From the NCBI GenBank assembly GCA_034003585.1, contig JAVEYH010000002.1:32036-96035 (forward strand): a DNA stretch of 64,000 bases, in the 5' to 3' direction. A model generated the notes under the pieces. That model was not told the origin of the DNA, ran no database searches, and was given only the letters and a program-made list of their open reading frames with translations. The position numbers and the translations under genes were made by a program. Source of the DNA: Kiritimatiellia bacterium (GTDB taxonomy: Bacteria > Verrucomicrobiota > Kiritimatiellia > RFP12 > UBA1067). This document shows positions 3,444 through 44,672 of this stretch, in pieces (position 1 is the stretch's first letter; every line of letters starts with the position of its first letter).

Positions 3444-4076
3444 ATGAACTGGACAACCCTGCTCTGCATGCCGTTCCTCGTCCTGGCCGGGTCAGGCTGC
3501 CTCGGCGGCGCGCGCGCGCACCGGCTCGCCGATCGCCAGAAACGATCGTTTCTCCCGGAGGCGTCGGCCGCCCAACCTCTGGCGCCCGCCCCCCGTTTCG
3601 GCGCCGCCACGCTGCGTTCCCTGCGGATCCAGCCGCCGTTCGACGCGCGCACCTTCCTGATCCGGCGCGGCCAAAACGAGTTCGCCGCCGATTTTTATAA
3701 CGGCTGGATCGCCCCTCCCGCAGACCTGATCCGCGGTCAAACCGCCCGGTATCTGCGCGAAACCGGCCTGTTCGAGACCGTGTTCGATCTTCCCGGCGGC
3801 ACACGGGCCCCGTTGGGTCTGGAGTGTATCGTGAACGACCTGTACCTCGACCACTCCGGACCGGAACCCGCCGCGGTTGTGGCGATGCGGGTTCTGGTTC
3901 TTGATGAGCGCACCCCGAATGGTTCCGTGCTGTTCACCTGCGAGAAGCGGGCGCGCGTTCCGCTGACCTCTTCCGACGCGGGCACCGCAGCGGAGGCGCT
4001 CGGCCGTGCCCTGACGCAGACGTTGGAGGCTTTGACCCGGACACTGGCCGCCGCGCCGCTCGGCGGGGTCCGCTAG
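3444..4076 (+). CDS. Lipoprotein, probably the ABC-type transport auxiliary component (PqiC/YmbA-like) that commonly follows MCE genes.
   Basis: It is 210 aa with the lipobox LAGSGC after a signal peptide. Its size and position directly downstream of mlaD fit the family. The family assignment is from memory, not a search. Confidence 0.45.
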   Translation: MNWTTLLCMPFLVLAGSGCLGGARAHRLADRQKRSFLPEASAAQPLAPAPRFGAATLRSLRIQPPFDARTFLIRRGQNEFAADFYNGWIAPPADLIRGQTARYLRETGLFETVFDLPGGTRAPLGLECIVNDLYLDHSGPEPAAVVAMRVLVLDERTPNGSVLFTCEKRARVPLTSSDAGTAAEALGRALTQTLEALTRTLAAAPLGGVR

Positions 4077-4202
4077 GGCCTTACGAACCGGCACCCTCCA
4101 AATGCGGGTTGTTTCTCACACGAAGCCGCGAAGAGAGATGTGGCCTTTGTGCCCCTGTGGGAGGGGAAAGGGGATTGCGGGCTGTGCCGGCATGGGGACG
4201 GC

Positions 4203-5693
4203 TCAGTGGATCTCGTCCGTGACCGGCGGAATGTAATCGAGCCCCTCCCGGCGCTCGATCATGCGGATCGTTTTCCACACGCCCGTCCGCCACCGCCACC
4301 AGAACCCGGAGGCCAGGACCGAAACGTAGACGGCCAGCCATACCCACAACCCCAGGATGCCGGAGCCGAAGCGCAACAACACCAGCGAACCGGGAACCAG
4401 AAACAGCCAACTCCCGATAATCATGTAAACCATCACGAAATAGGTATCCCCCGCGCCTTTCAGCGCGCCGCTTAAGATGATCGACACGGTGTCGAGCAGA
4501 CCCCAGGCGGTCATGAGGCACAGCATGACACGCCCGGTTTTCAGCAGTTCCCCGGCGGAGAACGCCGCGTCGGGAGGACGGAAAAGCTCGAAATACCCGC
4601 GGGGAAAGAGCACAAAGGTCGCGCCGATCACGCACATGTAGGCGAGACCCATCTTGAGGCCGGTATACCCTGAGCGCTCCGCCGCGTCCGGCCGGCCGGC
4701 CCCCTGATGCTGGCCCACCAGCGTGGAGGCGGCCAACCCGAACCCCAGCAACGGGGCGAAAGCCAGATTATTGATGCTGAACGCGATGTTACTGGCCGCC
4801 AACGCCACCTCGCCCAGCCGTCCCGTCAGCATGATGAAGACGGCGAACGACCCGATATCCATCAGCAACTGCAGGCCCGAGGGTGTCCCGTACCGCACGA
4901 TGCGCCTCAACATCCGGTAATCCGGACGCCAGACGCCGGGGAACAGAGTCCCCGTGGAGGGGTCCGGGAACGGAAAAATCCGCCCGTCCCCCCTGCGGGA
5001 CTGACAGGCCCGGTAAAACGGGACGCCTTGCAGGAGGCAGGTGACCGCACCGGAGATCAGCGTCGCATACGCCGCGCCCGCGATGCCGAGTTCCGGGAAC
5101 CCCCATCTCCCGAAGATCATGGCGTAATTGAGCGCGATGTTCAGAGAACAGCCGCTGGCGTTCGCGATCATGTTCACGCGCGTTTTGCCGATACCCATGA
5201 AATACCCGCCCACAGCGGCGTTCAGCGGAACGGTCACCCCTCCCGCCATGAGAATCAGGAAGTACGTTTTCTCGGCCGCCAGCACCTCGGGCGCATGACC
5301 GCTGAGAGCCATGATGCCGTACCCGAGCGGAATCTGCAGCAGGATCAGGGGCCAGGAACCGAGCGCCAGCCAGATGCCCTGGATCGTGGCGCGCACACAT
5401 TGGACCGGGTCTTCCGCGCCATGGTAATGGGCGGTGAAGGTGCCGGCATATCCCGCGAGCGCCTGAAAGAAACAGATCAGCGTGTGCGCGAGAATGCCCG
5501 CCGGCAAGGCCGCCTGAATCGTCACGCTGCTGTAACGCGCCAAAAAAACACGGTCGCAAAACTGCATGACGGTGTACGACGCCATGCTGAGGATGAGCGG
5601 CATGGCGATCCGCCACATCTCCCGGTACCCGCCCGGCAACACCGCGCCACGCTCTCCCCCTCCGCCCACATGCCCCCCTCCCCGGGACCCCAT
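4203..5693 (-). CDS. MATE-family multidrug/oligosaccharide efflux transporter.
   Basis: The track ORF is 4203..5738. About 12 TM segments are present, and the N-terminal region MWRIAMPLILSMASYTVMQFCDRVFLARYS is typical of NorM/DinF MATE proteins. The start is uncertain: GTG at 5738, ATG at 5693 or ATG at 5618. Confidence 0.75.
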   Translation of the reverse strand: MGSRGGGHVGGGGERGAVLPGGYREMWRIAMPLILSMASYTVMQFCDRVFLARYSSVTIQAALPAGILAHTLICFFQALAGYAGTFTAHYHGAEDPVQCVRATIQGIWLALGSWPLILLQIPLGYGIMALSGHAPEVLAAEKTYFLILMAGGVTVPLNAAVGGYFMGIGKTRVNMIANASGCSLNIALNYAMIFGRWGFPELGIAGAAYATLISGAVTCLLQGVPFYRACQSRRGDGRIFPFPDPSTGTLFPGVWRPDYRMLRRIVRYGTPSGLQLLMDIGSFAVFIMLTGRLGEVALAASNIAFSINNLAFAPLLGFGLAASTLVGQHQGAGRPDAAERSGYTGLKMGLAYMCVIGATFVLFPRGYFELFRPPDAAFSAGELLKTGRVMLCLMTAWGLLDTVSIILSGALKGAGDTYFVMVYMIIGSWLFLVPGSLVLLRFGSGILGLWVWLAVYVSVLASGFWWRWRTGVWKTIRMIERREGLDYIPPVTDEIH

Positions 5694-5804
5694 CCGTTTG
5701 GCCCCGGACGTCTCCCCCTGACAGGGCCGGACCGACACCCCGGGGGGCGCGGGGCGCTCCCCGCACCTTCCGGTCCGCCGGCCCCGGCCTGCGGTCCGCG
5801 CGGT

Positions 5805-6830
5805 CTACAACAGCTCGTTGACCCGCGTCATCACTTCAAACGCATCCGCCACATAGACCACATCCGCCTTGCCTTGCGCCCATCCGCAGTTCGGATCGAG
5901 GTTGACAGCCCGGCGTTCGTTAATGAACCGCCAGCCCACCGCATGCGGCTCTTCGCCGTGACAGCAGGTCGCCAACCCTTTCGGATGCCGCGGCGTGGAC
6001 CCAGTCTGCCCGACCTGATTCATGTGCGACATGAAACGCAGCGTTTCCTGGCCCTCACTTTGGATGTCCACCAGCGATTTGCTGCTGCCGAGCGAAGCCT
6101 GCGTCTTCCGCAGAAACGTCTGAATCAACTCGCCGGCCTGCGCGATGTGCGGCTGGCCGTCCTTCTGCTTTTTCGTCCACCCGGCACCCGCCACAAACAG
6201 CAGCGGGGCGTCGGGCCGGATCGTCTGCGCGTCCGCCGCGGGGGAACGGACCCCCGTCACCGTCGTACGCTGCTCGTCATCCGCAAACGCGACCTCCACC
6301 GCCTGCGCCGACGCGCTCCCGGGAGCACCCTCCCACGGCGCATTGACCCCGCCATCCACCACCAGCAGCCACGGCCGCGCCGCCCGGCTGAACGAACCCA
6401 GAATCCGCTGACGGTAAAACCAGCGCTGCACGCGCACCGAGCCGTCCGGCTCCGCCTGCTGCGCGACGATGTGGGTGTCGATCGCGGCACCCAGACGGTA
6501 TGACGCGCCCGGCAGGCACCGCATCCACCGCGAACTCCCCGGCGCCACCACGATCTGCGCGCCCGAGGCCCGGACCAGCGCCGTGACCGCCGCGACATCC
6601 GTGGCATACCGCGGCTGGCGCACCGCCTCGCCGCCGACCACCCAGAACGAAGCGGCGCCGCACCCCGCCACCGCATCGGCCGCCGCCGACGCACCGTTCC
6701 CGATCACACCGACCGACAGCACCGCCCCGGACTGCGAGGCGAGCTGGCCCGCGGCCGTCAAGGCCTCCCGCGCCGCTTTGGGCAGGCTGCCGTCCTCTTG
6801 CGTGTGCATCAGCGCCAAAACCGTTGTCAT
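5805..6830 (-). CDS. etfA: Electron transfer flavoprotein alpha subunit.
   Basis: The track ORF 5805..7106 was trimmed to the ATG at 6830 (MTTVLALMHTQEDGS). GGGAGGA lies upstream on the minus strand. The C-terminal FAD-binding region (HMNQVGQTGSTPRHPKGLATCCHGEEPHAVGW...NLDPNCGWAQGKADVVYVADAFEVMTRVNELL) is EtfA-like. Confidence 0.8.
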   Translation of the reverse strand: MTTVLALMHTQEDGSLPKAAREALTAAGQLASQSGAVLSVGVIGNGASAAADAVAGCGAASFWVVGGEAVRQPRYATDVAAVTALVRASGAQIVVAPGSSRWMRCLPGASYRLGAAIDTHIVAQQAEPDGSVRVQRWFYRQRILGSFSRAARPWLLVVDGGVNAPWEGAPGSASAQAVEVAFADDEQRTTVTGVRSPAADAQTIRPDAPLLFVAGAGWTKKQKDGQPHIAQAGELIQTFLRKTQASLGSSKSLVDIQSEGQETLRFMSHMNQVGQTGSTPRHPKGLATCCHGEEPHAVGWRFINERRAVNLDPNCGWAQGKADVVYVADAFEVMTRVNELL

Positions 6831-6850
6831 TTCCGATCCTCCCTGTTCCG

Positions 6851-7660
6851 CTACGCTTTGATCCATTCCACAATCTCGCGGGCGATCTCCTCCGCCGTCG
6901 CATCCTTCACAATCCTCGTCTGCCGTTTTTGCGACGGGAGTTCGACACTCCCGTACGCCATCCCGCCCACGCTCGCCGCCGCAGGCTTGGCCTTCTGGAG
7001 CGCGGGCATCACCGCGCGCATGTTGGCCATGCCGATCTGAGGATTGTTCGGCGGTTCCGGCAGGTTGCCGGTCGCCCAAGCCAGAACCGCCGGCGCCCCC
7101 GCGCAAACCGAGGCCTGATATTGGCCGCCCTCAATCCGCTCCAACACCTCAAACCCGCCTTCGGGGCGCACGGTCAGCACATCGACGCCGACAAACTGAT
7201 CGCGGATGCCCAGCCGCTCGCCCACCACCTGCAGCGTCACACTCGCGTCACGGGAGGCCGACGCGCACCCGCCGAAAACCAGCAGACGGGATTTATCCAG
7301 ACCGGGAATCGCCTCAATGGCGCCGGCCAGCGCCTCCGCCACACCCAGCGCATCCGTGAACCCGCTGGCGCTGCCGTCCAACGCGATCAGCTCAAACGGC
7401 ACCTTCTGCGCCACGGTCATCATCAGTTGCTGTAATTTGGCCTTGGGCCCCAGGCTCACCAGCCAGACCTTGCTGCCGGGAACCCGCTTCGCCAGATCCG
7501 CCGCCTCATACAGCGCATGCGCCGCCCACGGGTCCAGAACCGAAGGCAACATCGTTTCGTTTTTCAACCCGGGACCCTGCGGGGTGGAAACCGGTTCGAG
7601 CGTCTGGAGCGGATCAGGCACCAGACTGCCGCATACGACAAGTTGAAATCCGTCTGTCAT
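6851..7660 (-). CDS. etfB: Electron transfer flavoprotein beta subunit.
   Basis: It is 269 aa and begins MTDGFQLVVCGSLVPDP, a typical EtfB N-terminus. It lies directly upstream of etfA in the same orientation. The ATG at 7660 was verified. Confidence 0.85.
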   Translation of the reverse strand: MTDGFQLVVCGSLVPDPLQTLEPVSTPQGPGLKNETMLPSVLDPWAAHALYEAADLAKRVPGSKVWLVSLGPKAKLQQLMMTVAQKVPFELIALDGSASGFTDALGVAEALAGAIEAIPGLDKSRLLVFGGCASASRDASVTLQVVGERLGIRDQFVGVDVLTVRPEGGFEVLERIEGGQYQASVCAGAPAVLAWATGNLPEPPNNPQIGMANMRAVMPALQKAKPAAASVGGMAYGSVELPSQKRQTRIVKDATAEEIAREIVEWIKA

Positions 7661-7718
7661 CGTTCTCTCCTTTGGCGCACACTATAGCAAAGGACCCTCG
7701 CCGGGTGGAATGCCCTTT

Positions 7719-7776
7719 TTCGCCCGTGCCGCACCGCCGGGCGGTAAATTCGGCTCTTGCCTCCGGTCCGCGGGAA
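7719..7776 (+). promoter_or_regulatory. Candidate sigma70-type promoter for tRNA-Val: TTGCCT, an 18-nt spacer, then CATAAT.
   Basis: The hexamers were read by eye in cttgcctccggtccgcgggaaacggcataatgcgc, about 25 nt upstream of the tRNA. Confidence 0.25.
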
Positions 7777-7799
7777 ACGGCATAATGCGCACGGTTTTC

Positions 7800-7876
7800 G
7801 GGCGGTTATCTCAGTCGGTTAGAGAACCTGGTTTACACCCAGGGTGTCGGGGGTTCGAGTCCCTCACCGCCCACCA
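7800..7876 (+). tRNA. tRNA-Val (anticodon TAC).
   Basis: The sequence GGGCGGTTATCTCAGTCGGTTAGAGAACCTGGTTTACACCCAGGGTGTCGGGGGTTCGAGTCCCTCACCGCCCACCA folds by hand into a cloverleaf. It has a 7-bp acceptor stem (GGGCGGT/ACCGCCC), the anticodon loop TTTACAC, a GGTTCGAGTCC T-arm and an encoded CCA. Confidence 0.85.
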
Positions 7877-7923
7877 TCCGCGCGCCGCGTTGCGGGTTGC
7901 GGACCTCACCCGTCGCGTTCCGG

Positions 7924-8337
7924 TCACGGCAGCCGCGCACCGGTGGTCCCTGCCGCAACGGACACGTGTTTCAGCCCCTTGACGGCTTTCAGTCGCGCGA
8001 CCAGACGATCAATCACGGCCGACCGGCCGCGGACCGCGATGATCTCCAAGCAGTTGTCGTGATCCAGATGCACGTGCTGCGTCGAGATGATCGCCGCATG
8101 GCAGTCATGCTGCGCCTCGGTGAGTTTTTCAACCACGTTGCGCGTGTGGTGATCATACACGAGCACCACGGCTCCGGCCACCTCCTCGCCGGCACGCCAC
8201 TCGGTCTCCACCAGATTGGCGCGGATCAGGTCCCCGACGGCCTTGGAACGCGTGGGGCAGCGGTCGTTCCGGATTTTCGCGTCGAATTGCCGCAACAACC
8301 CCTCTTCCAACGAAACGCTGAAACGCATGAGTCCCAT
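7924..8337 (-). CDS. nikR: Nickel-responsive transcriptional regulator NikR (ribbon-helix-helix plus a C-terminal metal-binding domain).
   Basis: The track ORF 7924..8598 was trimmed to the ATG at 8337 (MGLMRFSVSLEEGLLRQFD...), which has GAGAGGAAG upstream. The C-terminal AGAVVLVYDHHTRNVVEKLTEAQHDCHAAIISTQHVHLDHDNCLEIIAVRG aligns with the E. coli NikR high-affinity Ni site (STQHHHHD...HVHINHDDCLEI). Confidence 0.8.
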   Translation of the reverse strand: MGLMRFSVSLEEGLLRQFDAKIRNDRCPTRSKAVGDLIRANLVETEWRAGEEVAGAVVLVYDHHTRNVVEKLTEAQHDCHAAIISTQHVHLDHDNCLEIIAVRGRSAVIDRLVARLKAVKGLKHVSVAAGTTGARLP

Positions 8338-8603
8338 TCGCACTTCCTCTCTGCCGGAATACCGTACCATCTCCGCCAACCGGTGGCAATCCTTCCAGCC
8401 GTTTTCCTTGGGGTCGGGCGCCTCCCGTTCCGTTAGCTCCGCCCGGTTCCCCGTGTATGGGAACGTGTGCCGCTTCGCTGTGAACGGGTACGGTCTCGCG
8501 GCCATCCATGCCGGCACTTTCCATGATGACGGAACCATCGGCGTCGGGGTCGGTATCGGGAGCGCCGTCCCCGGATGGGCAGGCACCGTCCTTGGCATTG
8601 TTT

Positions 8604-8632
8604 TTGCAATCCCGCCGCGCGTTTATTATACT
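8604..8632 (+). promoter_or_regulatory. Candidate sigma70 promoter for the downstream operon: TTGCAA, a 17-nt spacer, then TATACT.
   Basis: It sits in a locally AT-rich stretch (ttgcaatcccgccgcgcgtttattatact) within the 352-nt nikR/CoADR intergenic region, about 55 nt upstream of the GTG start at 8690. Confidence 0.3.
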
Positions 8633-8689
8633 TTCATTAACCAAACCAACTATGGGCGTGATGCGCGAAGGACCGGAAAGGAAACGGCT

Positions 8690-10417
8690 GTGAGCACACC
8701 TGAGCAACACGGGCAACGGAAAGCAAAACCCAGAATCGTGGTGATCGGCGGAGTGGCCGCAGGGCCCAAAGCGGCCTCACGCCTGATCCGGCTGAACCCG
8801 GACGCCGAAGTGACGATCATCGAGAAAGGGTCCTTGCTCTCCTATGCGGGCTGCGGCCTGCCCTATTATGTTTCCGGCGTGGTCAAAGAACAGAAAGAGC
8901 TGATGAGCACACCGGCCGGCGTGGTGCGCGACCCGGTTTTCTTCAGCAAGGTCAAGAACGTGCATGTACGCAACGCGACCGTGGCGCTGCGCATCGACCG
9001 CGAGAAGAAACGCGTGGGCGTGGCGCCCGTCGGCGGCGCAGAGCCGACCGAATGGCTCGCCTATGACAAGCTGTTGCTCTGCACCGGCGCGCGGCCGGTC
9101 AAACCGCCCCTGCCCGGCGTAGACAAGACCGGCGTGTACACCCTGCACGAGGTGGAGGATGCCGAGGGGATCAAGACAGCCCTGTCTGAGACCCGGGCCA
9201 AGGATGTGGTGATTGTGGGCGGCGGACTGATCGGCGTGGAGATGACCGAGGCGCTGGCCGGGCACGGCTGCCGCGTGACGGTCGTAGAAAAACTGGATCA
9301 GATTCTCCCGATGCTCGACGCGCACATGGCGCGCCTCGTTGAAAAGCACATGGAGTCCAAAGGCGTGCGCGTAATGACCGGCGCCGGCGTGGAGGCGATC
9401 CTGGGCCGGGCCGATGACGATCTGCGCGTGGGCACGGTGCGGACCTCCGTGGGAACCCTGCCCGCCGACATGGTGATCCTTTCGATCGGCGTGCGGCCCA
9501 ACACCGATCTGGCGCAAGACGCGGGTCTGACGATCTGCGGGCGCACACGCGCCATCGCCGTCAACGGGCACATGCAGACCTCCGACCCCGACATCTACGC
9601 GGCCGGCGACTGTGTGGCGGTCAACCACCGGATGACCGGCCAACCCGCCTTCCTCCCGCTGGGCTCGACCGCCAACAAGCAGGGCCGCGTGGCCGCGAAC
9701 CACATCTGCGGCATCGCGGATGCATTCCCCGGCGTGCTGGGCAGCGCGGTCTGCAAGGTCTTCGACTTCTGCGTGGCGCGGACCGGCCTGACCGAGCGCG
9801 AGGCACGCGCGGCCGGCTATGACACGGAGGTCACGCTGACCCCCGCGCCGGACCAGGCGCATTTCATGCCGGGCGCGCGCCTGCTGGTCCTGAAGCTGGT
9901 CGCCGACCGCGCGACGCGCCGGCTGCTCGGCGCGCAGGCGGTCGGACCCGGCGCGGGCGACAAGCGGATCGACGTCGCCGCCATGGCCCTCACCGCCGGC
10001 ATGACGGTCGACCAGCTCGCGCACGCGGACCTCTGCTACGCGCCGCCGTTCTCGCCCGCGGTGGACAACATCCTGACCGCGGCCGACGTGATGCGCAACA
10101 AGCTGGACGGACTGTTCACCGGCGTCTCGGCCGGAACGCTACAGGCCGAACTCGATTCGGCCCCCCCCCCGGTCCTGCTTGACGTCCGCACGCCGGACGA
10201 GTTCAAATCCATGCGCCTGCCCGGCTCGCTCTCCATCCCGCTCGGCGCATTGCGCTCGCGGCTGCACGAGGTGCCGCGCGACCGCCCGGTGGTCGCGTTC
10301 TGCAAAATCTCCCTGCGCGGTTACGAAGCAGCCCGGATCCTCAAGGCGGCGGGTTACACCGACGTTCGCGTGCTCGACGGCGGGCTCGCCACCTGGCCTT
10401 ACGATTTGGAGAAATGA
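8690..10417 (+). CDS. CoA-disulfide reductase / NADH-dependent persulfide reductase type: a pyridine-nucleotide-disulfide oxidoreductase with a C-terminal rhodanese domain.
   Basis: The GTG start at 8690 is preceded by GGAAAGGAAACGG, and the 5' part of track ORF 8216..10417 overlaps nikR on the opposite strand. It has an FAD motif (RIVVIGGVAAGPKAA), a CoADR redox Cys motif (SYAGCGLPYY), an NAD(P) site (VVIVGGGLIGVEMTEAL) and a C-terminal rhodanese region (LLDVRTPDEF...VVAFCKISLRGYEAARIL) with an active-site Cys. Confidence 0.75.
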   Translation: MSTPEQHGQRKAKPRIVVIGGVAAGPKAASRLIRLNPDAEVTIIEKGSLLSYAGCGLPYYVSGVVKEQKELMSTPAGVVRDPVFFSKVKNVHVRNATVALRIDREKKRVGVAPVGGAEPTEWLAYDKLLLCTGARPVKPPLPGVDKTGVYTLHEVEDAEGIKTALSETRAKDVVIVGGGLIGVEMTEALAGHGCRVTVVEKLDQILPMLDAHMARLVEKHMESKGVRVMTGAGVEAILGRADDDLRVGTVRTSVGTLPADMVILSIGVRPNTDLAQDAGLTICGRTRAIAVNGHMQTSDPDIYAAGDCVAVNHRMTGQPAFLPLGSTANKQGRVAANHICGIADAFPGVLGSAVCKVFDFCVARTGLTEREARAAGYDTEVTLTPAPDQAHFMPGARLLVLKLVADRATRRLLGAQAVGPGAGDKRIDVAAMALTAGMTVDQLAHADLCYAPPFSPAVDNILTAADVMRNKLDGLFTGVSAGTLQAELDSAPPPVLLDVRTPDEFKSMRLPGSLSIPLGALRSRLHEVPRDRPVVAFCKISLRGYEAARILKAAGYTDVRVLDGGLATWPYDLEK

Positions 10418-10433
10418 TCCCCAAGGAGTCCCC

Positions 10434-13364
10434 ATGCGGAAAATCATGGATTGCTGTCTGCGGCGCCCCGCTTCCGTGACCTGGCTCATGGCCGGCACCA
10501 CGCTGGCCCTGCTGCTGCTGGCGGCGCTGCCCACGGCCGCGCCCTCACTCTTCCCCTTCCTGCACGGCGCGAAGATCGACACCGACCCGGAGAACATGCT
10601 CTCGCCGCAAGAGCCGGTGCGCGTCTTCCACAACGCGAAGAAAAAAGAGTTCGCGCTGGCCGACATGCTGGTTGTGGGCGTGGTCAACGACCGCGCGCCG
10701 GATCATGTCTTCAACCCCGCCACCCTGCGCGATGTGCACGATCTGACCGAATACGCCAAGACGCTGCGCGGCGCGGCGATCGGCAAGCCGGACGATCCAC
10801 AGGCCGGCGTGATCGAGATCGACATCCTCGCGCCCTCCACGGTGGACAACGTCGAGCAGGGCGGACTCGGCAGCGTCCGCTTCGAGTGGCTGATGCCGGA
10901 ACCGCCCGCCACCCCTGAGGCCGCGCGCGCGGTGCGCGACAAGGCTATGAACCTGCCTTTCATGAAAGGCACGCTGGTCTCAGAGGACGGCCAGGCGCTG
11001 GCGCTCTATATCCCGTTGACCGACAAACACCTTTCCTACGCTGTCGCGCGGCGGCTCAAAGAGAAAATCGCCTCCTTCACCTCCGGCGACGAGTACCACA
11101 TCACCGGCCTGCCCGTGGCCGAGGACACCTTTGGCGTGGAGATGTTCAAGCAGATGGCGATCTCCGCGCCGACCGCCATGCTGATCATATTTCTGCTGCT
11201 CCTGCTCTTCTTCCGCAAGCTGGCGCTGATCCTTTCGCCTCTGATCGTCGCGGTCGTGAGCTGCATCGTGACCATGGCGCTGCTGGTCGCCACCGGCCAC
11301 ACGATCCATATCATGAGCAGCATGATCCCGATCTTCATCATGCCGATCGCCGTATTGGACGCGATTCACATCCTCTCGGAGTTCTTCGACCGCTATCAGG
11401 AGAGCAAAGACCGTGCGACAGCCATCCGGCATGTCATGGACACCCTGTTCACGCCGATGCTTTACACCAGCCTGACCACGGCGGTCGGCTTCCTCTCGCT
11501 GGCCCTCACACCGATCCCGCCGGTGCAGGTCTTCGGCATCTTCATCGCCATCGGCGTGATGGTGGCGTGGGTCTGGACCATCGCCTTCATCCCTGCCTCA
11601 GTGATGTTCATCAGGCCGGAGACGCTGGCCAACTTCGGCCTTACGGAGCACAACGCGCAAGCCGAGTCGCACTCGCTGATGACGCGCGTGCTGCGCGGCG
11701 TGGGCCGGGGCACATACCGCTACGCCCAACTGATCCTGGCCGGCACGGCGCTGCTGACCGCGGTGGCGCTCTGGGGCATGAGCCGCATCGTGATCAACGA
11801 CAACCCGGTCAAATGGTTCAAGCCCGCCCACCCGATCCGCGTGGCGGACAAGGCGCTCAACAGGCACTTCGGCGGCACCTACATGGGCTATCTGGCGCTG
11901 CGCCCCTCCGGCGAGCTGCCCGCCCCGCCCCGCATGAGCGCGGCGCTGGCAGGTCCCATGCGCCAGCGCGCTGCGGCGCTGAAGGCCAACGGCACGGAAG
12001 GCGCGGAAACGGTCTTCGCCGCCCTCACGGCCAAGGCCGAGTCGCTGGACCGGAGCGCGGCGGACCGCGACGCGTTCTTTGACCAGCTTCAGGCGTTCGT
12101 CGCGCAGCAGACCGATGCCGCGCCGGACGCGCGGTTCGACGCCTGGGACGCCGCCGGGCTCTTTGTCAGCGCGCAGGCGCAGAGCGGGCAGACCTTCAAG
12201 GACCCCGCCGTGCTGCGCTGGGTCGCGGCCCTGCAGGAACACCTGCTGACAATCCGGAGCCCGGACGGGCGTCCGCTGGTGGGCAAGAGCAACTCGATCG
12301 CGGACCTCGTGCGCACGGTGTACCGCGAACTGATGGAAGGCAAGCCGGAGTACTACCGCATCCCCGACTCCCGCGAAGGCGTGGCGCAGACGGTCATGCA
12401 GTACGAAAGCTCGCACCGTCCGCATGACCTCGCGCATTTCGTGCGCACCGACACCTGGCGCGACACCAGCGTCTGGATCCAGCAGAAAAGCGGCGACAAC
12501 CGCGACATGAAGGTGGTCGTCGATGCGGTCGAAACCTACGTGGCCGCCAACCCGCCGCCGTCCGACCTGAAAGCCGAGTGGTTCGGCCTGACCTACATCA
12601 ACGTGGTGTGGCAGGCCAAGATGGTCAACGGTATGCTGGTCTCTTTCCTCGGCAGCTTCGCCGCGGTCTGGTTCATGATGATCCTTCTCTTCCGTTCGGC
12701 GCTCTGGGGGTTCCTCTCCATGCTGCCGCTGACCGTCACCATCGGCCTGATCTACGGGTTGATCGGCATCGTGGGCAAGGACTACGACATGCCGGTCGCG
12801 GTGCTCTCGTCGCTCAGCCTCGGCATGGCCGTGGATTACGCGATCCACTTCCTCTCGCGCGCCAAAGAGATGCAGGCCCGGCACGGCTCGTGGCAGGCGG
12901 CCTCGGGGCCGATGTTCGGCGAACCCGCGCGCGCCATCACCCGCAACGTGATCGTCATCGGCGTGGGCTTTTTGCCGCTGCTGGCCGCGCCGCTGGTGCC
13001 CTACAAGACCGTCGGCACCTTCATCGCCGCGATCCTGCTTTTCGCGGGCGTGACCACGCTCTTCCTGCTGCCCGCGCTGATCCGCCTGCTGGAGAACCGG
13101 CTTTTCCCGAAAGCGGGCGCGGTTTTCGTGTGCCGCTGCGGCACCTGCTTCTTCGCGGCGGTGTCCGGCTTGCTGACCGTGGCGCTCAACGTCCAGCTCT
13201 TCGCCGATGTCGCCTGGACTACGGTGTCATACGCGAGCCTGGCCTGCATCGCGCTGGTGGCGCTCTTCTGTTTCCTCAGCGGCCGCCGTAAAACCTGTCT
13301 TCGGAAACAGCCCGGCCCGTCCGGCCTGTCCGACCCGTCCGGCAAAACCAAGGAGACCCCATGA
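10434..13364 (+). CDS. RND-superfamily exporter of the MMPL / HpnN-like type (two repeated membrane domains).
   Basis: The ATG at 10434 follows AAGGAG, and the 5' extension of the track ORF is rejected. It is 976 aa with two 6-TM blocks, each followed by a soluble domain. Motifs such as AISAPTAMLIIFLLLLLFFR and LGMAVDYAIHFLSR are characteristic of MMPL/RND exporters. Confidence 0.75.
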   Translation: MRKIMDCCLRRPASVTWLMAGTTLALLLLAALPTAAPSLFPFLHGAKIDTDPENMLSPQEPVRVFHNAKKKEFALADMLVVGVVNDRAPDHVFNPATLRDVHDLTEYAKTLRGAAIGKPDDPQAGVIEIDILAPSTVDNVEQGGLGSVRFEWLMPEPPATPEAARAVRDKAMNLPFMKGTLVSEDGQALALYIPLTDKHLSYAVARRLKEKIASFTSGDEYHITGLPVAEDTFGVEMFKQMAISAPTAMLIIFLLLLLFFRKLALILSPLIVAVVSCIVTMALLVATGHTIHIMSSMIPIFIMPIAVLDAIHILSEFFDRYQESKDRATAIRHVMDTLFTPMLYTSLTTAVGFLSLALTPIPPVQVFGIFIAIGVMVAWVWTIAFIPASVMFIRPETLANFGLTEHNAQAESHSLMTRVLRGVGRGTYRYAQLILAGTALLTAVALWGMSRIVINDNPVKWFKPAHPIRVADKALNRHFGGTYMGYLALRPSGELPAPPRMSAALAGPMRQRAAALKANGTEGAETVFAALTAKAESLDRSAADRDAFFDQLQAFVAQQTDAAPDARFDAWDAAGLFVSAQAQSGQTFKDPAVLRWVAALQEHLLTIRSPDGRPLVGKSNSIADLVRTVYRELMEGKPEYYRIPDSREGVAQTVMQYESSHRPHDLAHFVRTDTWRDTSVWIQQKSGDNRDMKVVVDAVETYVAANPPPSDLKAEWFGLTYINVVWQAKMVNGMLVSFLGSFAAVWFMMILLFRSALWGFLSMLPLTVTIGLIYGLIGIVGKDYDMPVAVLSSLSLGMAVDYAIHFLSRAKEMQARHGSWQAASGPMFGEPARAITRNVIVIGVGFLPLLAAPLVPYKTVGTFIAAILLFAGVTTLFLLPALIRLLENRLFPKAGAVFVCRCGTCFFAAVSGLLTVALNVQLFADVAWTTVSYASLACIALVALFCFLSGRRKTCLRKQPGPSGLSDPSGKTKETP

Positions 13365-14170
13365 AACACACCCTGACCGCCCTGTTTGTTGCCCTGGCCG
13401 CCGGCCTCGCGCTGGCGCAGCCCGTCCCCTCTGTCAACGAGATCGTCGCCAAGGCCAACCGTGCCGCCCACTATCAGGGGCGCGACGGGAAGGCCAAGGT
13501 CTCGATGGCCATCCAGGACGCGCAGGGACGCCAGCGTACCCGCGAGTTCACGATCCTGCGGCTCGACCTCGAACCCGCGGGCGACACCTCCGACACCTTC
13601 ACCGGCGACCAGAAGATGTACGTCTTCTTCGATCGTCCGGCTGACGTGCACAAGACCGCCTACCTGGTCCACAAGCATGTGGGCCGGGATGACGACCGCT
13701 GGCTTTACCTGCCCGGCCTCAACCTGGTGAAGCGCATCGCGGCCTCGGACAAGCGCACCAGTTTCGTGGGCTCCGATTTTTTCTATGAGGATGTCTCCGG
13801 CCGCAATCCCGATGACGACAACCACGCGCTGGCGGAGACCACCGACACCTATTATGTTCTCCAGAGCACGCCCAAGGACCCCAAGAGCGTGGAGTTCGCC
13901 TCCTACAAGGTCTGGGTGCACAAGAGCAGCTTCATCCCGGTCAAGGCCGAGTATTACGACGCGGCCGGCCAGAAGATCCGCGAAGGCCAGGCGCTGGAGG
14001 TGCGGCCGATCCAGGGCTTCCCCACCGTCACCCGGTCCCGGATGAAAGATCTGCGCTCCGGCAGCGGCACAACGGTCTCCTACACCCAAGTCGAGTACAA
14101 CGTCGGCCTGGAGGAAGACCTCTTCACCGAACGCTACCTGCGCAACCCGCCCCGGGCGAAATTGCGGTGA
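13361..14170 (+). CDS. Outer-membrane lipoprotein-sorting (LolA-like) protein of the kind that accompanies MMPL exporters.
   Basis: It has a signal peptide (MKHTLTALFVALAAGLALAQ) and a 4-nt overlap with the upstream exporter. Its ~270-aa size and pairing with an MMPL gene are typical. The family assignment is from memory. Confidence 0.55.
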   Translation: MKHTLTALFVALAAGLALAQPVPSVNEIVAKANRAAHYQGRDGKAKVSMAIQDAQGRQRTREFTILRLDLEPAGDTSDTFTGDQKMYVFFDRPADVHKTAYLVHKHVGRDDDRWLYLPGLNLVKRIAASDKRTSFVGSDFFYEDVSGRNPDDDNHALAETTDTYYVLQSTPKDPKSVEFASYKVWVHKSSFIPVKAEYYDAAGQKIREGQALEVRPIQGFPTVTRSRMKDLRSGSGTTVSYTQVEYNVGLEEDLFTERYLRNPPRAKLR

Positions 14171-14325
14171 CGGGAAAACGCGTGCGGTGGAAAAGGAACC
14201 CGAATGGATGAGGCGCCCGGCATCGGATTGAAGCGAAAGCTGTTCTGTGGTACAGTTCCGGCCGGCTGGGATGTTCGCGCAGGGCCGGCCTCAGGAGGGA
14301 GGCGGGCACAAGGGAAGGCCAGGCG

Positions 14326-14622
14326 ATGAAACTGGTGATGGCGGTTTACAACATCGGGGTGGATGAGGAGGTCATGGCGGCGATGGAACGGGGGGGCGTC
14401 GCCTGCTTCACCAAGATGCCGCGGGTTGTGGGAAAAGGCAAGACCACCGGACCGCGTCTGGACAACAGCGTCTGGCCGGGCGCGAACACGCTGTCGCTGT
14501 TCGTGGTGCCGGATGAGCGCGCGCAGGACGTGATGCGGGTATTTGAAGACCTCCGCGCCACCATCGGACGTAAAGCGGGGGTCAAGGCGTTCCTCCTCAA
14601 CGTGGAGCAACAAACCGCGTAA
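14326..14622 (+). CDS. Small PII/GlnB-like signal-transduction-family protein (tentative).
   Basis: It is 98 aa. Its segment TKMPRVVGKGKTTGPRLD resembles the PII T-loop region (TEVKGFGRQKG), and GVKAFLLNVEQ resembles the PII C-terminal beta strand. No search was run. Confidence 0.35.
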   Translation: MKLVMAVYNIGVDEEVMAAMERGGVACFTKMPRVVGKGKTTGPRLDNSVWPGANTLSLFVVPDERAQDVMRVFEDLRATIGRKAGVKAFLLNVEQQTA

Positions 14623-14683
14623 CGATATGGGCGCGCGGCCGTGTGCGGCAGGCCGCGGGCATTGTGAAAGGATCGGAAACGAC

Positions 14684-15328
14684 ATGGGCAGAGCGCGCAA
14701 AGCCGAGATCGGCGACCGGATGGTGAAACGGTTTCCCCTGTATCTCCGTGTTTTGCGGGAGATGGCGGAGCAGGGTGAACCCTACGCTTCCGGAGCGGTG
14801 GTTGCCAAAGCGTTGTCGCTGGACCCGATCGTGGTGCGCAAGGATCTCTCCCGGACCGGCGTGCGCGGCACGCCGCGTCTGGGGTTTCCGCTTCGCGAGG
14901 TGATCGCCGCCATCGAACGTTTCCTCGGCTGGAACGCCCATACCGAAGCGGTACTGGCCGGCGCGGGGCGTCTGGGCTCCGCCCTGCTGGGGTACCCCGG
15001 TTTTCAGGACCAGGGATTCAAGATTGTGGCAGCCTTTGACGCGAATCCGCGGAAACGCGGCCGGATCGCGGGGGTGCCCGTCTATCCCGCGGATCAACTC
15101 GCCAACAAAGCCCGCACGCTGGGCGTGTCGCTCGGGATTCTCACGGTGCCGGCCGGCCAGGCGCAGGCCGCGGCGGACGCCATGATGGCCGGCGGGATCC
15201 GGGGAATCTGGAATTTCACGCCCGTACAGCTCGCGGTGCCCTCGGATGTGATCGTCAAACGCGAAGACCTGGCCGCCGGACTGGCGGTGCTCTCCCACCG
15301 GTTGCGTCAAGGGGGCGCCACCGCATGA
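14684..15328 (+). CDS. rex: Redox-sensing transcriptional repressor Rex.
   Basis: The internal ATG at 14684 (MGRARKAEIGDRMVKRFPLYLRVLREM...) gives a ~214-aa protein. It has a winged-helix N-terminus and a Rossmann NADH-binding domain (VLAGAGRLGSALLGY...KIVAAFD...GIRGIWNFTP). Confidence 0.85.
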   Translation: MGRARKAEIGDRMVKRFPLYLRVLREMAEQGEPYASGAVVAKALSLDPIVVRKDLSRTGVRGTPRLGFPLREVIAAIERFLGWNAHTEAVLAGAGRLGSALLGYPGFQDQGFKIVAAFDANPRKRGRIAGVPVYPADQLANKARTLGVSLGILTVPAGQAQAAADAMMAGGIRGIWNFTPVQLAVPSDVIVKREDLAAGLAVLSHRLRQGGATA

Positions 15329-16476
15329 CTGTGGGCATGGATGTGCTGGCCACGCGACGCTTTGACGCCCTGCGCGGCAAACGCGTGGGCCTGTTGAGTC
15401 ATCAGGCCGCGCGGACGCGCGGCGGCGCGACGTCGGCGCAACGGCTGCGCGCCGCACTGGGCGACCGGCTGGTGGCACTCTACGGCCCGGAGCACGGTTT
15501 TTTCGGCCAGGCGGGCGCGGGCGTGCGCACTGCCTCGCGTCGACATCCCGACTGGGGCATCCCGGTTCACTCCCTTTACGGGGACCGGCGCAAACCGGCG
15601 CCCGCCATGCTGTCGGGCGTGGACCTCATGGTCTGCGACCTGCAGGACCTCGGCGTGCGCTGTTACACCTATCTCGCCACCCTTCGCAACATGCTGGAGG
15701 CGTGCCGGGAAGCGGGAATCCCTGTGCTGGTCACTGACCGGCCCATCCCGCTGCCCCGCGCGGTCGACGGCCCCATGCCGGAAGCCGGCGCGCTCGGGTT
15801 TGTCGCGCCCTGCGCGGTTCCGCTGGTCTACGGCATGACCCCGGCGGAAAGCGCCCGCTGGATGCGGCACACCCTGTTTCCCGACCTGCGTCTTGACGTG
15901 CTTCCCATGGAGGGCTGGTCTCGTGAGGACGCGGCCTGGGATGGCGGGCGCCCCGCGTTTTTGCCGCCGTCCCCCGGAATCAAGACGTGGGAGAGCGCCA
16001 TGACCTATGCGGCCACGGTCTTCTGCGAAGCGCTGCCCGGAATCGATTGCGGCCGCGGCACCAATCTGGCGTTCCGCGTTCTGGGCGCGCCGTGGCTGCG
16101 CGCGGAACGTACCTGCGCGCGGCTGGCGGCCCTGCGCGCGGCTGGCGCCTCCTTCACCCCGCACCGGTACACCGCGGTCGGGGGCGCATATGACGGCCGC
16201 GAGCTCGACGGCCTGCTGCTGACCGTCACCGACCCCGCGCGTTTCGCCCCGGCCACCGTCTCCCTGGCGCTGCTGCAGACCCTGGCGGAACAGTACGGCC
16301 CGCACCGCGTCTGGCGCCACAAGGGCGTGCGGCCGGCCTGGTTCGACACGCTGTACGGGACCGCGGCGGCGCGGCGGGACCTGTGCAGGGGCCGGCCGTT
16401 CCGCGAGATCGCTGCGGGATGGCGCGCCGCGCACCGGGCGTTCCGGACCGCGCGCGCCGCGGCGCTGTTGTATTGA
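15325..16476 (+). CDS. DUF1343 family protein (NamZ-like exo-beta-N-acetylmuramidase family).
   Basis: It is 383 aa. The N-terminal region RVGLLSHQAA...LVALYGPEHGFFGQAG fits the DUF1343 signature as I recall it. Its ATG overlaps the rex stop in an ATGA arrangement. Confidence 0.5.
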   Translation: MTVGMDVLATRRFDALRGKRVGLLSHQAARTRGGATSAQRLRAALGDRLVALYGPEHGFFGQAGAGVRTASRRHPDWGIPVHSLYGDRRKPAPAMLSGVDLMVCDLQDLGVRCYTYLATLRNMLEACREAGIPVLVTDRPIPLPRAVDGPMPEAGALGFVAPCAVPLVYGMTPAESARWMRHTLFPDLRLDVLPMEGWSREDAAWDGGRPAFLPPSPGIKTWESAMTYAATVFCEALPGIDCGRGTNLAFRVLGAPWLRAERTCARLAALRAAGASFTPHRYTAVGGAYDGRELDGLLLTVTDPARFAPATVSLALLQTLAEQYGPHRVWRHKGVRPAWFDTLYGTAAARRDLCRGRPFREIAAGWRAAHRAFRTARAAALLY

Positions 16477-16477
16477 C

Positions 16478-17410
16478 TCAGAAGAAGCGGCGGCGGGCGA
16501 GCACAATCACCACGACCAGCGAGAGCAGCAGCGAAACGCCCATGAGGATGGGGAAGGCGTGCTCATACTGGCCCAGAGGCAGTTTCACATTCATGCCGTA
16601 AATGCTGGCCACCAGCGTGGGCAGCATGAGCACGATCGTGATGGAGGTCAGATACTTCATCACGTTATTGAGGTTGTTCGAAATGATCGAAGCGAAGGTG
16701 TCGAGCGTGCCGGTGAGGATGTTGCTGTGGATCGTGGCCATCTCCAGCGCCTGCCGGTACTCCACCGCCACGTCCTCCAGCACATCGAGATCCTTGTCGG
16801 GGATGTCCAACTGGCGCGTGTGCTCGACGCGTCCGATCAGGATGTCGTTCGCCTTCAGTGAGGTGGTGAAGTAAACCAGACTCTTCTCGATGTTCAGCAG
16901 GCGCATCAGCGCCTCGTTGGAGATCGATTCGTGCAGGTCCTGCTCAACCATGTCGGCGCGCTGGCGGATGTCGCGCAGATACCGCAGGTAAAGGATGGCC
17001 GAATGCCAGAGAAGCTGGAACGCGAACCGGAACTGGTCCTCGGGCGGGCAGACGCGCCGGATCTGGTCCAGGAAGGTGCTGGTGACCGGCGTCAGCCGGT
17101 TACAGATCGTGATCACATTGGACTGGGTGAGGACAATGCCGAGCGGCAACGTGTGGAACGGGATCAGATTCTCGTGCGGCTCATGATACGGGACATGCAC
17201 GATCAGGAGTGTGGCCCCATCCTCAATCTCCAAACGGGGCCGCTCGTCCTTGTCCAGCGGGTCCGTGAGAAACTCGCGCGGGACACGGGTCAGCTCCTGG
17301 ACCCGCGCGATCTCTTCTGTGGAGGGGTCGGCCAGATTGATCCAGCAGGCTCCGGTCGGAGCGGCGACCTCCCGGAGACCTCCGTTCTCCCAATGATAGA
17401 TTGTGACCAT
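16478..17410 (-). CDS. corA: Magnesium/cobalt transporter CorA.
   Basis: It is 310 aa with a YGMNV (GMN) motif and two C-terminal TM helices. The ATG at 17410 was verified. Confidence 0.9.
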   Translation of the reverse strand: MVTIYHWENGGLREVAAPTGACWINLADPSTEEIARVQELTRVPREFLTDPLDKDERPRLEIEDGATLLIVHVPYHEPHENLIPFHTLPLGIVLTQSNVITICNRLTPVTSTFLDQIRRVCPPEDQFRFAFQLLWHSAILYLRYLRDIRQRADMVEQDLHESISNEALMRLLNIEKSLVYFTTSLKANDILIGRVEHTRQLDIPDKDLDVLEDVAVEYRQALEMATIHSNILTGTLDTFASIISNNLNNVMKYLTSITIVLMLPTLVASIYGMNVKLPLGQYEHAFPILMGVSLLLSLVVVIVLARRRFF

Positions 17411-17484
17411 AACCGCCTCCTCTCCGCACCAGCGGGCTCGTTTGTACTCTTATCCCCCACCTGATGCAAGCGGTTTCTTGACGG

Positions 17485-22767: not shown

Positions 22768-22976
22768 ACTCAACCGCCTTTCCTGCAAGAATCACCACAT
22801 CCATTTTCGTTTGATTACGAAGGCAAAAGGATACCCCAAAAGGGGGCGTGTGCCAAGCCGGTTGCGGCGAAAAACAGCTTTATGCTTTTACTCCACACCC
22901 CCCTTCTGCTATAAGAAGCGTGTATTGCGACGGCTGAAAGGAACCTTGCCGTCAATCCGGCTCTCCGAGGTTTTCC

Positions 22977-41408: not shown

Positions 41409-41504
41409 GCCGAATGACCCCCACCACGAATACGGAAACAGGACACGGCCCGTATCCGCCGGCACGGCACGGGTCCAAGATCCCACGGGAGGAGCGTCAG
41501 CGGC

Positions 41505-44500: not shown

Positions 44501-44672
44501 GACGGTGATCGGAGGCCTCTCCTTCTCCACAATCGTCACCCTGCTGCTCGTCCCGGTTCTCTACAGTCTCTTTAACCGCGACACGCGAAACCCGCAACCC
44601 CAAGAAAGGACCACAGATGAAAAACCTCATCCAGACGGCTCTGGCCGCCCTGCTTCTCACTCCAACCGTTGA
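41505..44672 (+). CDS. RND efflux inner-membrane transporter (AcrB/CzcA-like).
   Basis: It is 1055 aa with a typical 12-TM, two-large-loop architecture and begins MRLPELGVKRPVFTLMVFIAILVLGLVSLSRLPIDLFPE. Confidence 0.9.
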   Translation: MRLPELGVKRPVFTLMVFIAILVLGLVSLSRLPIDLFPEIETPSVTVITQWPGASVEDVEGRVTRVIENQLSIVNNLDEVTSRTREGVSAITCMFEWGTDLEEAANDIRDRVSIARRFLPDDIEEPIIYKFNSSAMPVLVFAATAKESWERLFDIVEDDLGDALKRLPGVGAVNVYGGLHRQINIDIDPMKLAGYNLTLAEIEQTIARENLTLPAGSIKNGVIEYTVRVPGEFEDPEEARDIVVKRNASGGAIYLRDVAEVYDGFEEPTRLSGANGEPSVIFVVQKRSGANTLKVCESVLRAVDGYARFLPQDIRIVNVMNASDFIRQSLRNVTGTLLWGGLFVTLTTFVFLRTLRASLVIVLTIPFSLIIAFFFMFVRGWTLNIISLSSLSVAIGMVVDNAVVVLENIDSYTRRGVKLREAAMYATGEVGLALSASTLTTVAVFVPLIFVTGMSGIFFGQLGGIITTTLMASLFCSLMLTPMLASFLLKADRDAIGGGRPGRALYRLSETAFRTVEEAYARLLGWALRWRGPVCAVAFAVFCFSLALYPLIGSEFSPDTDSGDLTVNFELGLGTRVEETARLCEEARQLGVSLIGAGHVVNSRWRCGDSKFGSNRQGSHIGRVEFKLTPMDRRPFSARDAGRRLLDALRARPEFVKTSMSTVNRQMGRFSGSGQPIVIEILGYDLTQTRRVAEEIKALCDRTPGARDASVSMDDGKPELLVKVNRLKVSTLGLNVSDVVETIRTLFYGKEASDFREGENEYWLFLRLKESRRRELADILDSEIVLPNGRRVRVDAIADVVQDLGPLDIERKDQERMVKVEVDYYGRSIGEVVASIQEGIAKEIVLPEATQITYGGMVKEQSEAFADLIGLTVLGLVLVYMVMAAQFESLLHPFVIFLALPFAFSGVLFSLYGFGMTFNMFSFIGIILLVGTGVNNGIVLVDRINTLRARGETLADAIRHSGRQRLRPVLITTLTTIFGMLPLALAGGEGSETWKPMGVTVIGGLSFSTIVTLLLVPVLYSLFNRDTRNPQPQERTTDEKPHPDGSGRPASHSNR

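Follow-up and report, generated by a model that had tools for sequence, protein, structure and literature searches.

Fusions of a coenzyme A-disulfide reductase with a rhodanese domain (CoADR-RHD) are known from cst-like operons of the CstR type. For the regulator NikR, Rodionov et al. (2004) predicted the signal GTGTTAC-N13/14-GTAACAC upstream of nikMQO in the delta-proteobacteria (PMC545781). In AmeABCD of Castellaniella defragrans, which provides monoterpene tolerance, an HAE3-type resistance-nodulation-division (RND) transporter is accompanied by a LolA-like protein of the DUF1329 type and an outer-membrane protein of the DUF1302 type (PMC6394551). Thalassolituus has an MMPL/LolA-like fusion with an adjacent porin-like gene; this fusion is induced on long-chain alkanes (PMC6304351). 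In Azospira suillum PS, a sulfide:quinone reductase (SQR) is encoded inside an RND efflux operon, Dsui_3440-3443, which is induced during sulfide oxidation; deletion of this operon leaves the rate of H2S oxidation unchanged (PMC5358917). The locus described here lies in a 64-kb stretch of contig JAVEYH010000002.1 from a Kiritimatiellia bacterium, referred to below as the window. It joins elements of known kinds: an orphan NikR, an Npsr-type CoADR-RHD and an HAE3-like RND transporter with a LolA-like partner.

In the window, nikR (7924..8337, minus strand) is divergent from an operon of three genes on the plus strand, here called the cassette. The cassette encodes a CoADR-RHD (8690..10417), an MMPL/HAE3-type RND inner-membrane transporter (10434..13364) and a LolA-like periplasmic protein (13361..14170); the spacer between nikR and the CoADR-RHD gene is 352 bp. 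The first-pass annotation read this arrangement as a possible nickel- or NikR-responsive sulfur module. Comparison with related loci points to a different explanation: the adjacency of nikR and the cassette is probably the product of a 5.8 kb insertion, which would have placed two functionally unrelated units side by side. The probability of this reading is put at about 0.75.

The evidence comes from two close relatives (in what follows, L-numbers are comparison loci and P-numbers comparison proteins). In L168, a metagenomic contig with a NikR 87% identical to that of the window, nikR and the PII-like/rex/namZ genes are direct divergent neighbours, separated by a spacer of approximately 170 bp (1587-1756). 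In the window, the PII-like gene, rex, namZ and corA lie 3' of the cassette. By blastn, window 7924-8392 corresponds to L168 2170-1702 and to L006 10414-9946 (approximately 85% identity), while window 14226-15918 corresponds to L168 1662-2; window positions 8392 and 14226 map approximately 40 bp apart in L168. This site is empty, and the nikR/cassette adjacency would therefore result from a 5.8 kb insertion or deletion. L006 is the closest genome, with a NikR 88% identical; it shares 7924-8392 and the PII-like/rex/namZ/corA block (14323-17797) at 85-88% DNA identity. Its slot between them (3468-9945, 6.5 kb) encodes a protein with PATR repeats, a GDSL lipase and an unknown product instead of the cassette.

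The cassette is thus located on a lineage-specific 5.83 kb segment (8393..14225 by blastn against L168 and L006) in a variable slot, a short divergent spacer. The left edge of conserved synteny is formed by 55 bp common to the relatives (8338..8392, by blastn), which are presumed to be the nikR promoter and leader. The right edge is formed by a conserved region 5' of the PII-like/rex operon (14226..14325, plus strand, by blastn); the junctions were read directly. Synteny with L006 and L168 also ends exactly at the nikR stop codon (7924), so that nikR lies between two synteny breaks.

Other observations concern the slot itself. It has three states in three related genomes (empty in L168, other cargo in L006, the cassette in the window), with break points within approximately 20 bp. 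The spacer of L168 and L006 contains a palindrome, CCAAAGA-tgt-TCTTTGG, a possible operator. A conserved promoter-like element, TTGAAG-17-TACAGT (14228-14256), is located 5' of the PII-like gene. A fourth slot state was considered and rejected: L171, a 2.2 kb ENA contig with a NikR 100% identical, departs from the window (8560 onward) over its positions 1-546, within low-complexity sequence (GGGTCGG/CCGACCC), beyond which a cupin gene follows. This contig has 2.4x coverage and ends in Illumina adapter; it is probably an assembly chimera.

The linkage is not conserved at greater distances. A total of 85 NikR loci were compared, including 80 taken from species-representative genomes; tblastn finds homologues of the CoADR-RHD, MMPL and LolA-like genes in none of them. 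Conversely, NikR is absent from all 82 MMPL loci surveyed. A neighbourhood survey of NikR orthologues was proposed in the first-pass annotation, which named a lack of conserved linkage as the result that would count against its own model; this is the result obtained.

No target-site duplication, terminal or flanking direct or inverted repeat, or integrase is found at the insert, where repeat matches are at chance level, and its GC content and composition show no anomaly relative to the rest of the window. Synonymous divergence (dS) between the cassette genes and their nearest copy, in L089, is 0.40-0.49; for the flanking core genes and L006 it is 0.32-0.57. The similar dS of cassette and flank fits vertical descent with relocation inside the clade.

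The same data bear on the origin of the insert. A gene for tRNA-Val (anticodon TAC; 7800..7876, plus strand; ARAGORN, Rfam tRNA 66.9 bits) is located 47 bp from the nikR stop codon, and the region varies between relatives, which fits the idea that the cassette is a horizontally acquired genomic island integrated at this tRNA. However, the variable 5.83 kb segment ends at 8393 and 14225, between nikR and the PII-like gene, whereas tRNA-Val is on the other side of nikR. The integrase, the repeat of the tRNA 3' end (both also noted as missing in the first-pass annotation) and flanking direct or inverted repeats are all absent, GC content is typical of the window, and the dS values resemble those of the flanking genes, as expected for descent with relocation. 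Integration at tRNA-Val is therefore extremely improbable.

A second line of evidence concerns the NikR operator. Homologues place the host in the Kiritimatiellia/Lentisphaerota branch of the Planctomycetes-Verrucomicrobia-Chlamydiae (PVC) group, and in this clade the usual architecture is clear: nikR is followed by a 27-bp operator and then by a nickel-uptake operon (nik(MN)QO or a TonB-dependent receptor). Three long contigs with a NikR 74-84% identical carry a GTGTTAC-N13-GTAACAC palindrome directly 3' of nikR; the neighbours are FeoAB with a TonB-dependent receptor in one, CbiM in another, and a TonB receptor with a FecCD ATP-binding cassette transporter in the third. A position weight matrix (PWM) was built from 20 sites and applied within 400 bp of nikR at a threshold of at least 15 bits. 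Of 48 loci with a NikR at least 64% identical to that of the window, 33 have the operator, GTGTTAC-N13-GTAAYAC, near nikR; all 33 sites are downstream of the gene, 31-320 bp past its stop codon. In the sampled loci, the genes after the operator encode CbiM+PDGLE (NikMN) together with CbiQ, a MetA-like channel of the outer membrane, or receptors with a Plug domain. This arrangement of operator followed by nik(MN)QO or TonB receptor provides a transferable operator model for PVC bacteria, which can be used to locate the real nickel regulon in uncultured PVC genomes.

None of this is found in the window. The PWM detects no clade-type operator in the 64 kb: the top score is 3.5 with a window-composition background and -2.0 with a uniform background, compared to 30-47 and 15-34 bits, respectively, for sites at orthologous loci. 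In shuffled windows the maximum averages 1.2 and never exceeds 7.6 bits. The heptamers GTGTTAC and GTAACAC do not occur in the 64 kb, and searches across the window for E. coli-type (GTATGAT-N-ATCATAC) and reversed-orientation NikR operators give nothing meaningful. A single match to the clade motif with three mismatches (13268-13294) was discarded; it is GC-rich, lies within the MMPL coding sequence and is at chance level (0.57 expected). CbiM, CbiQ, TonB-receptor and MetA-like queries give no matches in the window.

A change in NikR specificity is unlikely to explain this, because the DNA-reading residues are the same as in orthologues that have the box; in P0012, from a locus with a 28-38-bit site (L008), they are identical to those of the window protein. 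The usual downstream box and transporter have apparently been lost from the nikR neighbourhood in this small lineage; if so, the targets of NikR must be elsewhere in the genome. A degenerate NikR-box-like 27-mer (PWM score 4.3) is present in L006 at 10469-10495, 55 bp 3' of nikR and in the usual box position; the lost operator may survive here in decayed form.

The NikR protein itself (137 aa) reads as a bona fide member of the Kiritimatiellia/Lentisphaerota clade. Its NikR_C domain (PF08753, E=4.3e-28), which the first-pass annotation had proposed to check by profile search, covers residues 54-127, and the protein scores 148.7 bits against the NCBIfam NikR equivalog NF003381 (cut-off 105). 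NCBIfam NikR models align from residue 3, and RHH_1 is recorded in close homologues, in agreement with an N-terminal ribbon-helix-helix domain. The nickel site reads QHVHLDHDNC with a further His 11 residues earlier; H77, H88, H90 and C96, invariant among 10 aligned orthologues, are spaced as in the E. coli high-affinity site H76/H87/H89/C95, which bears out the earlier call of an intact nickel site. The same alignment shows no change in the DNA-reading residues R5, S7 and S9. Because dN/dS relative to L006 is 0.12, indicating purifying selection, nikR is presumably functional, with its targets elsewhere in the genome. In public gene calls, nikR is lengthened to 193 aa, into a non-conserved upstream region (frames 8153-8716 and 7924-8598, minus strand) that includes a Pro/Asp-rich low-complexity stretch. 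The extension is missing from L006 and L168; the 137-aa form is therefore the real gene.

These results can be set against the model of the first-pass annotation, in which NikR (or a paralogue, responding to nickel or a different signal) acts from the common 352-bp spacer to control the operon and couples nickel homeostasis to persulfide chemistry and export. The divergent arrangement across this spacer, an intact NikR under purifying selection and the lack of any other regulator in the cassette are what this model would lead one to expect. However, no clade-type, reversed or E. coli-type box is present in the spacer or anywhere else in the window; the adjacency is missing from the 85 NikR and 82 MMPL loci; and the empty site of L168 and the different cargo of L006 show that the juxtaposition is recent and lineage-specific. 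In addition, only 55 bp 5' of nikR is conserved, and the putative promoter of the operon is approximately 270 bp away, within the inserted DNA. Control by NikR is very improbable, and the nickel-responsive sulfur module falls with it, since the indel explains the adjacency.

The putative promoter is a sigma-70-like candidate, TTGCAA-17-TATACT (8604..8632, plus strand), found by consensus scan in an AT-rich patch 58 bp 5' of the CoADR start codon; the scan of the region gives four sites compared to 0.8 expected. An Rfam scan of 7000-15500 at E<=1 finds the tRNA alone, with no riboswitch or small RNA in the spacer, where the inverted repeats are trivial 6-mers. No common operator could be derived 5' of the cassette; the upstream 340 bp in the window has no homology to L089. 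If the insertion reading is correct, the operon would be transcribed from its own promoter near 8604-8632, and NikR and nickel would take no part in its working.

Another possible regulator is encoded 530 bp downstream. If the operon belonged to the Rex (NADH/NAD+) regulon, NADH-dependent reduction of polysulfide or zero-valent sulfur (S0) could serve as a fermentation electron sink. The position of rex (14702-15328) agrees with this, as does the deposition of the closest solved homologue of the CoADR-RHD, 6PFZ, as an NADH oxidase; Rex regulons typically include NADH-recycling enzymes. However, no site resembling TTGTGAA-N4-TTCACAA with up to three mismatches is present in the window, rex is part of a conserved flank that is also found without the cassette (L168, L006), and the L089 cassette adjoins prfC rather than rex. 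Control by Rex is quite improbable.

Some points weigh against the insertion reading. Whether DNA was inserted here or deleted in L168 can be judged from only three related genomes, and no recombinase or target-site duplication was found that would explain the mechanism. The promoter at 8604-8632 is a candidate by consensus match only. Insertion beside a regulator could create new regulation. NikR proteins are able to bind degenerate or low-affinity sites, as reported for H. pylori; a missing consensus box is thus no strict exclusion. On balance, annotators should infer no nickel-persulfide regulon from the NikR/cassette adjacency, which is probably an accident of the variable slot.

The cassette can be considered independently of NikR. 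Its first gene encodes a 575-aa protein with Pyr_redox_2 (219 bits), Pyr_redox_dim (72.6 bits) and Rhodanese (58.6 bits) Pfam domains in one chain; the start is slightly uncertain, as public gene calls differ by 16 aa. The best PDB match is A. fulgidus 6PFZ (E=6.8e-152), followed by 3NTA, 3ICR and 8A56 (about 1e-106 to 1e-109), and the alignment to 6PFZ, 3NTA and 3ICR is full-length. 6PFZ was deposited as A. fulgidus NADH oxidase NoxA-3; we take it to be the NADH-dependent persulfide reductase (Npsr) of that organism. The redox Cys of CGLPYY (C55) and the Cys of the rhodanese loop (C538), both recognised in the first-pass annotation, are conserved relative to 6PFZ; they are invariant in seven MMPL-linked homologues and align with the PDB homologues. 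Its dN/dS relative to L089 is 0.15. The protein would act as a cytoplasmic Npsr-type flavoenzyme, using NAD(P)H to convert CoA-persulfide or polysulfide to H2S by reduction.

The MMPL gene begins 16 nt after the CoADR stop codon and is preceded by AAGGAG at 10423-10428. Its 976-aa product matches the MMPL profile (PF03176, E=4.4e-32) in two stretches, and the HpnN and MmpL4 structures match both halves, as expected for a 12-TM RND core with two MMPL halves. The best NCBIfam match is HAE3 (TIGR00921) at 154.5 bits, below the cut-off of 351.9; HpnN (TIGR03480) scores 73.1 bits against a cut-off of 751.85. By these scores the protein belongs to a subfamily distinct from curated HAE3 and HpnN. The best solved structure is that of HpnN (5KHN, E=2.2e-9). 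The start codon of the LolA-like gene (ATGA) overlaps the MMPL stop codon. The 269-aa LolA-like protein (PF17131, TP_0789-like; Pfam 201.5 bits) covers profile positions 1-183 of 184 and matches PDB 9TP6 (E=2.1e-30), as well as 4Z48 and 3BK5; its signal peptide ends in ALA|Q, and no lipobox Cys is present. All three cassette genes are intact and under purifying selection, with dN/dS values of 0.13-0.18 relative to L089. The RND pump, with the proton-motive force as its energy source, would draw a hydrophobic or amphiphilic compound out of the inner membrane and pass it to the LolA-like carrier; the exported compound is plausibly sulfur-related.

The MMPL and LolA-like genes belong to a more widespread module. 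Orthologues of the window MMPL are 51-88% identical across many phyla, with hosts including Kiritimatiella glycovorans, Dissulfurirhabdus thermomarina, Brocadiia, Nitrospinota, Hydrogenedentota and Planctomycetes. A LolA-like gene is present 3' of MMPL in nearly all of the 82 loci, and a third gene, encoding approximately 470 aa, follows it in 43 of the 49 loci with sufficient downstream DNA. The product has a C-terminal Phe and a sub-threshold DUF1302 match (E=5e-4), which suggests an outer-membrane barrel candidate. No such gene is found by tblastn in the 64-kb window. In L089, the closest copy of the cassette (88% identical), the order is prfC, CoADR-RHD, MMPL, LolA-like and outer-membrane protein. 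DNA homology between L089 and the window is restricted to 8734-14171; the window cassette is thus a relocated, truncated copy of the MMPL/LolA-like/barrel module with a unique 5' region.

Genes of sulfur and thiol metabolism recur beside the module. A true CoADR-RHD gene is found directly upstream of MMPL in approximately 14 loci and 3' of the module in one. The Kiritimatiellia copies form one subfamily, which is A. fulgidus Npsr-like with SYAGCGLPYY and a 6-aa insert (e.g. L089 6254-7954); the second subfamily is Shewanella/Bacillus-like, has SFANCGLPYY and is approximately 40% identical to the window protein. Copies compared with that of L089 are those at L142 6262-7959, L125 6278-7957, L139 6248-7957, L150 510-2141 and L103 13675-15354. 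The presence of two subfamilies by the same module suggests independent recruitment. In a low-GC lineage (L140, L148, L162 and L166), the module has a divergently oriented type I SQR gene approximately 170-430 bp 5' of MMPL (E=1.5e-152 to the A. ferrooxidans enzyme), and in one locus a stand-alone rhodanese (L103 13079-13651) lies between the outer-membrane gene and the CoADR-RHD gene. A membrane-anchored DUF302-like protein is encoded immediately 5' of MMPL in 11 loci (e.g. L119 7507-7983), and thioredoxin and OsmC also recur. K. glycovorans, a cultured host carrying the module in the 318.8-337.7 kb region of CP010904, has the order ArsR, MMPL, LolA-like, a 484-aa gene, DUF302, thioredoxin and SufCD.

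Upstream counts were made in the 50 loci with at least 3 kb of upstream sequence. Thirteen of these have an ArsR/SmtB-family gene ahead of the module, and 26 have at least one ArsR or thiol/sulfur neighbour; several of the 26 are orthologous and hence not independent. The module ArsR is closest to BigR (3PQJ, E=3.9e-13) and SqrR. It has a Glu opposite the sole Cys of the aligned BigR stretch, which is presumably the sensing Cys42, and contains other conserved Cys and His residues. No adjacent ArsR repressor of BigR/SqrR type with a sensing Cys pair is found, and the window has no ArsR gene by tblastn; queries for DUF302-like protein, OsmC, thioredoxin and SQR likewise give no tblastn matches in the window.

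The recurrence of these genes has to be weighed against a more general role, not tied specifically to sulfur, in which the MMPL and LolA-like proteins export envelope lipids or hydrophobic xenobiotics, in the manner of HpnN or AmeABCD, and the CoADR-RHD belongs to a broad stress regulon or is present by chance. The nearest characterised relatives do move hopanoids (HpnN) or give monoterpene tolerance (AmeABCD; PMC6394551), and an MMPL/LolA-like fusion responds to alkanes (PMC6304351). About half of the related loci have no sulfur or thiol neighbour, and some copies are found amid glycoside-hydrolase or ceramidase genes. However, different lineages repeatedly have the module immediately beside genes for CoADR-RHD (from two subfamilies), type I SQR, rhodanese, thioredoxin, OsmC or DUF302-like proteins, an ArsR or thiol/sulfur neighbour is present in 26 of the 50 loci, and the Pfam pass finds no hopanoid or terpene genes nearby. 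A general exporter has a modest chance of being the correct explanation, and on present evidence is unlikely.

The more specific proposal is that the MMPL/LolA-like/DUF1302-like-barrel module is a dedicated envelope system for zero-valent sulfur (hydrophobic S8, inorganic or organic polysulfanes), governed by an ArsR-family sensor and cooperating with sulfur enzymes of the cytoplasm or membrane, namely an Npsr-type CoADR-RHD, SQR and rhodanese. This proposal has only a slim chance of being right. If true, it would make the module a candidate for the route by which S0 passes the Gram-negative envelope. More broadly, a recurrent, uncharacterised RND/LolA-like/outer-membrane module located by sulfur/thiol genes and ArsR-type regulators is, through guilt by association, a concrete candidate for the export or handling of hydrophobic sulfur species or thiol-reactive hydrophobes.

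Here also there are points on the other side. The sulfur link is drawn from gene neighbourhood alone, and a sulfur-related substrate for the RND/LolA-like pair is putative. Several of the CoADR-positive loci share one lineage and hence are not independent. Lacking the outer-membrane partner, the window copy may act differently or only to the periplasm. Of the unit proposed in the first-pass annotation, the sulfane-sulfur reductase coupled to an exporter of hydrophobic compounds survives as a neighbourhood-based hypothesis independent of NikR, since CoADR-RHD recurs upstream of the module in distant lineages and in two subfamilies; the nickel and NikR link does not. Literature searches found no description of the CoADR-RHD/MMPL/LolA-like combination.

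The gene calls of the first-pass annotation (tRNA-Val, NikR, CoADR-rhodanese fusion, MMPL RND and LolA-like protein) are all correct in identity and position. Its statement that nickel transporter, hydrogenase and urease are missing also holds; the Pfam pass and tblastn find none among the open reading frames (ORFs) surveyed across the 64 kb. By the Pfam pass, the rest of the window consists of ordinary chromosomal genes, e.g. SMC, AccA/AccD, sulfatase, ClpC/McsB and aconitase. The conserved flank outside the cassette includes the PII-like protein (14326-14622, plus strand; Pfam P-II) and Rex (14702-15328, plus strand; Pfam Put_DNA-bind_N and CoA_binding), which are 92-93% identical to their L006 counterparts at the amino-acid level. 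By NCBIfam, the PII-like protein falls into the PG0541 family (PG0541_fam, 68.5 bits, cut-off 45), described as a transporter-associated protein; here it goes with rex and namZ, not with an RND pump.

Elsewhere in the window, an MlaE permease with a STAS domain at its N-terminus is encoded at 403-1524 (plus strand), and 17485-22788 (minus strand) encodes a repeat-rich protein of 1767 aa for which an N-terminal signal sequence is predicted. A complete classic tripartite RND pump (OEP/HlyD/AcrB, i.e. TolC-HlyD-AcrB) is located at 38869-44672 (plus strand). A 311-aa rhamnosidase ORF at 46817-47752 (plus strand) covers the usual domains in part and may be a fragment.

The locus resembles several described systems in part. 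With the NikR regulon (PMC545781) it shares a full-length NikR, with ribbon-helix-helix and NikR_C domains and the His and Cys residues of the nickel site, and its PVC orthologues have the same type of operator ahead of CbiM/NikM-type or TonB-dependent uptake genes. It differs in that neither operator nor uptake operon adjoins nikR or is found elsewhere in the 64 kb. Another difference from the described regulon is seen in the PVC orthologues of at least 64% identity, in which the box is downstream of nikR and not upstream of a divergent gene.

The CoADR-RHD has the three-domain architecture and both catalytic Cys residues of the Npsr/CoADR-RHD/CoAPR enzymes (6PFZ; Shewanella loihica 3NTA; B. 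anthracis 3ICR; E. faecalis 8A56; PMC9405070). Unlike genes in CstR-type cst-like operons, the window gene is in one operon with an RND pump and a LolA-like protein. For such a combination, the SQR/RND operon of Azospira suillum PS is a partial precedent, as a sulfide/sulfane-sulfur enzyme is co-transcribed with an RND pump; however, that pump is of the cation/multidrug type with a membrane fusion protein subunit, read as HAE1-type, and not MMPL with a LolA-like protein.

HpnN (5KHN/6WU0) and the window MMPL share the MMPL/sterol-sensing-like transmembrane core. The match is weak (E=2.2e-9), the NCBIfam HpnN score is far under the cut-off and no hopanoid genes are present here; HpnN also operates without a dedicated periplasmic partner (PMC6394551), unlike the window MMPL. 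AmeABCD differs in several respects: its LolA-like protein is of the 451-aa DUF1329 type, whereas that of the window is of the short PF17131 type (269 aa); no AmeC-like gene is found in the cassette or related loci, so that the window operon is wanting in both the DUF1302 outer-membrane protein and the AmeC-like second periplasmic component; and the neighbours of the module are thiol and sulfur genes, with no terpene-metabolism context. The likeness to AmeABCD lies in the design of the exporter, as the cassette also pairs an HAE3-like RND transporter with a LolA-superfamily periplasmic protein, and related loci add an outer-membrane candidate with a faint DUF1302 match.

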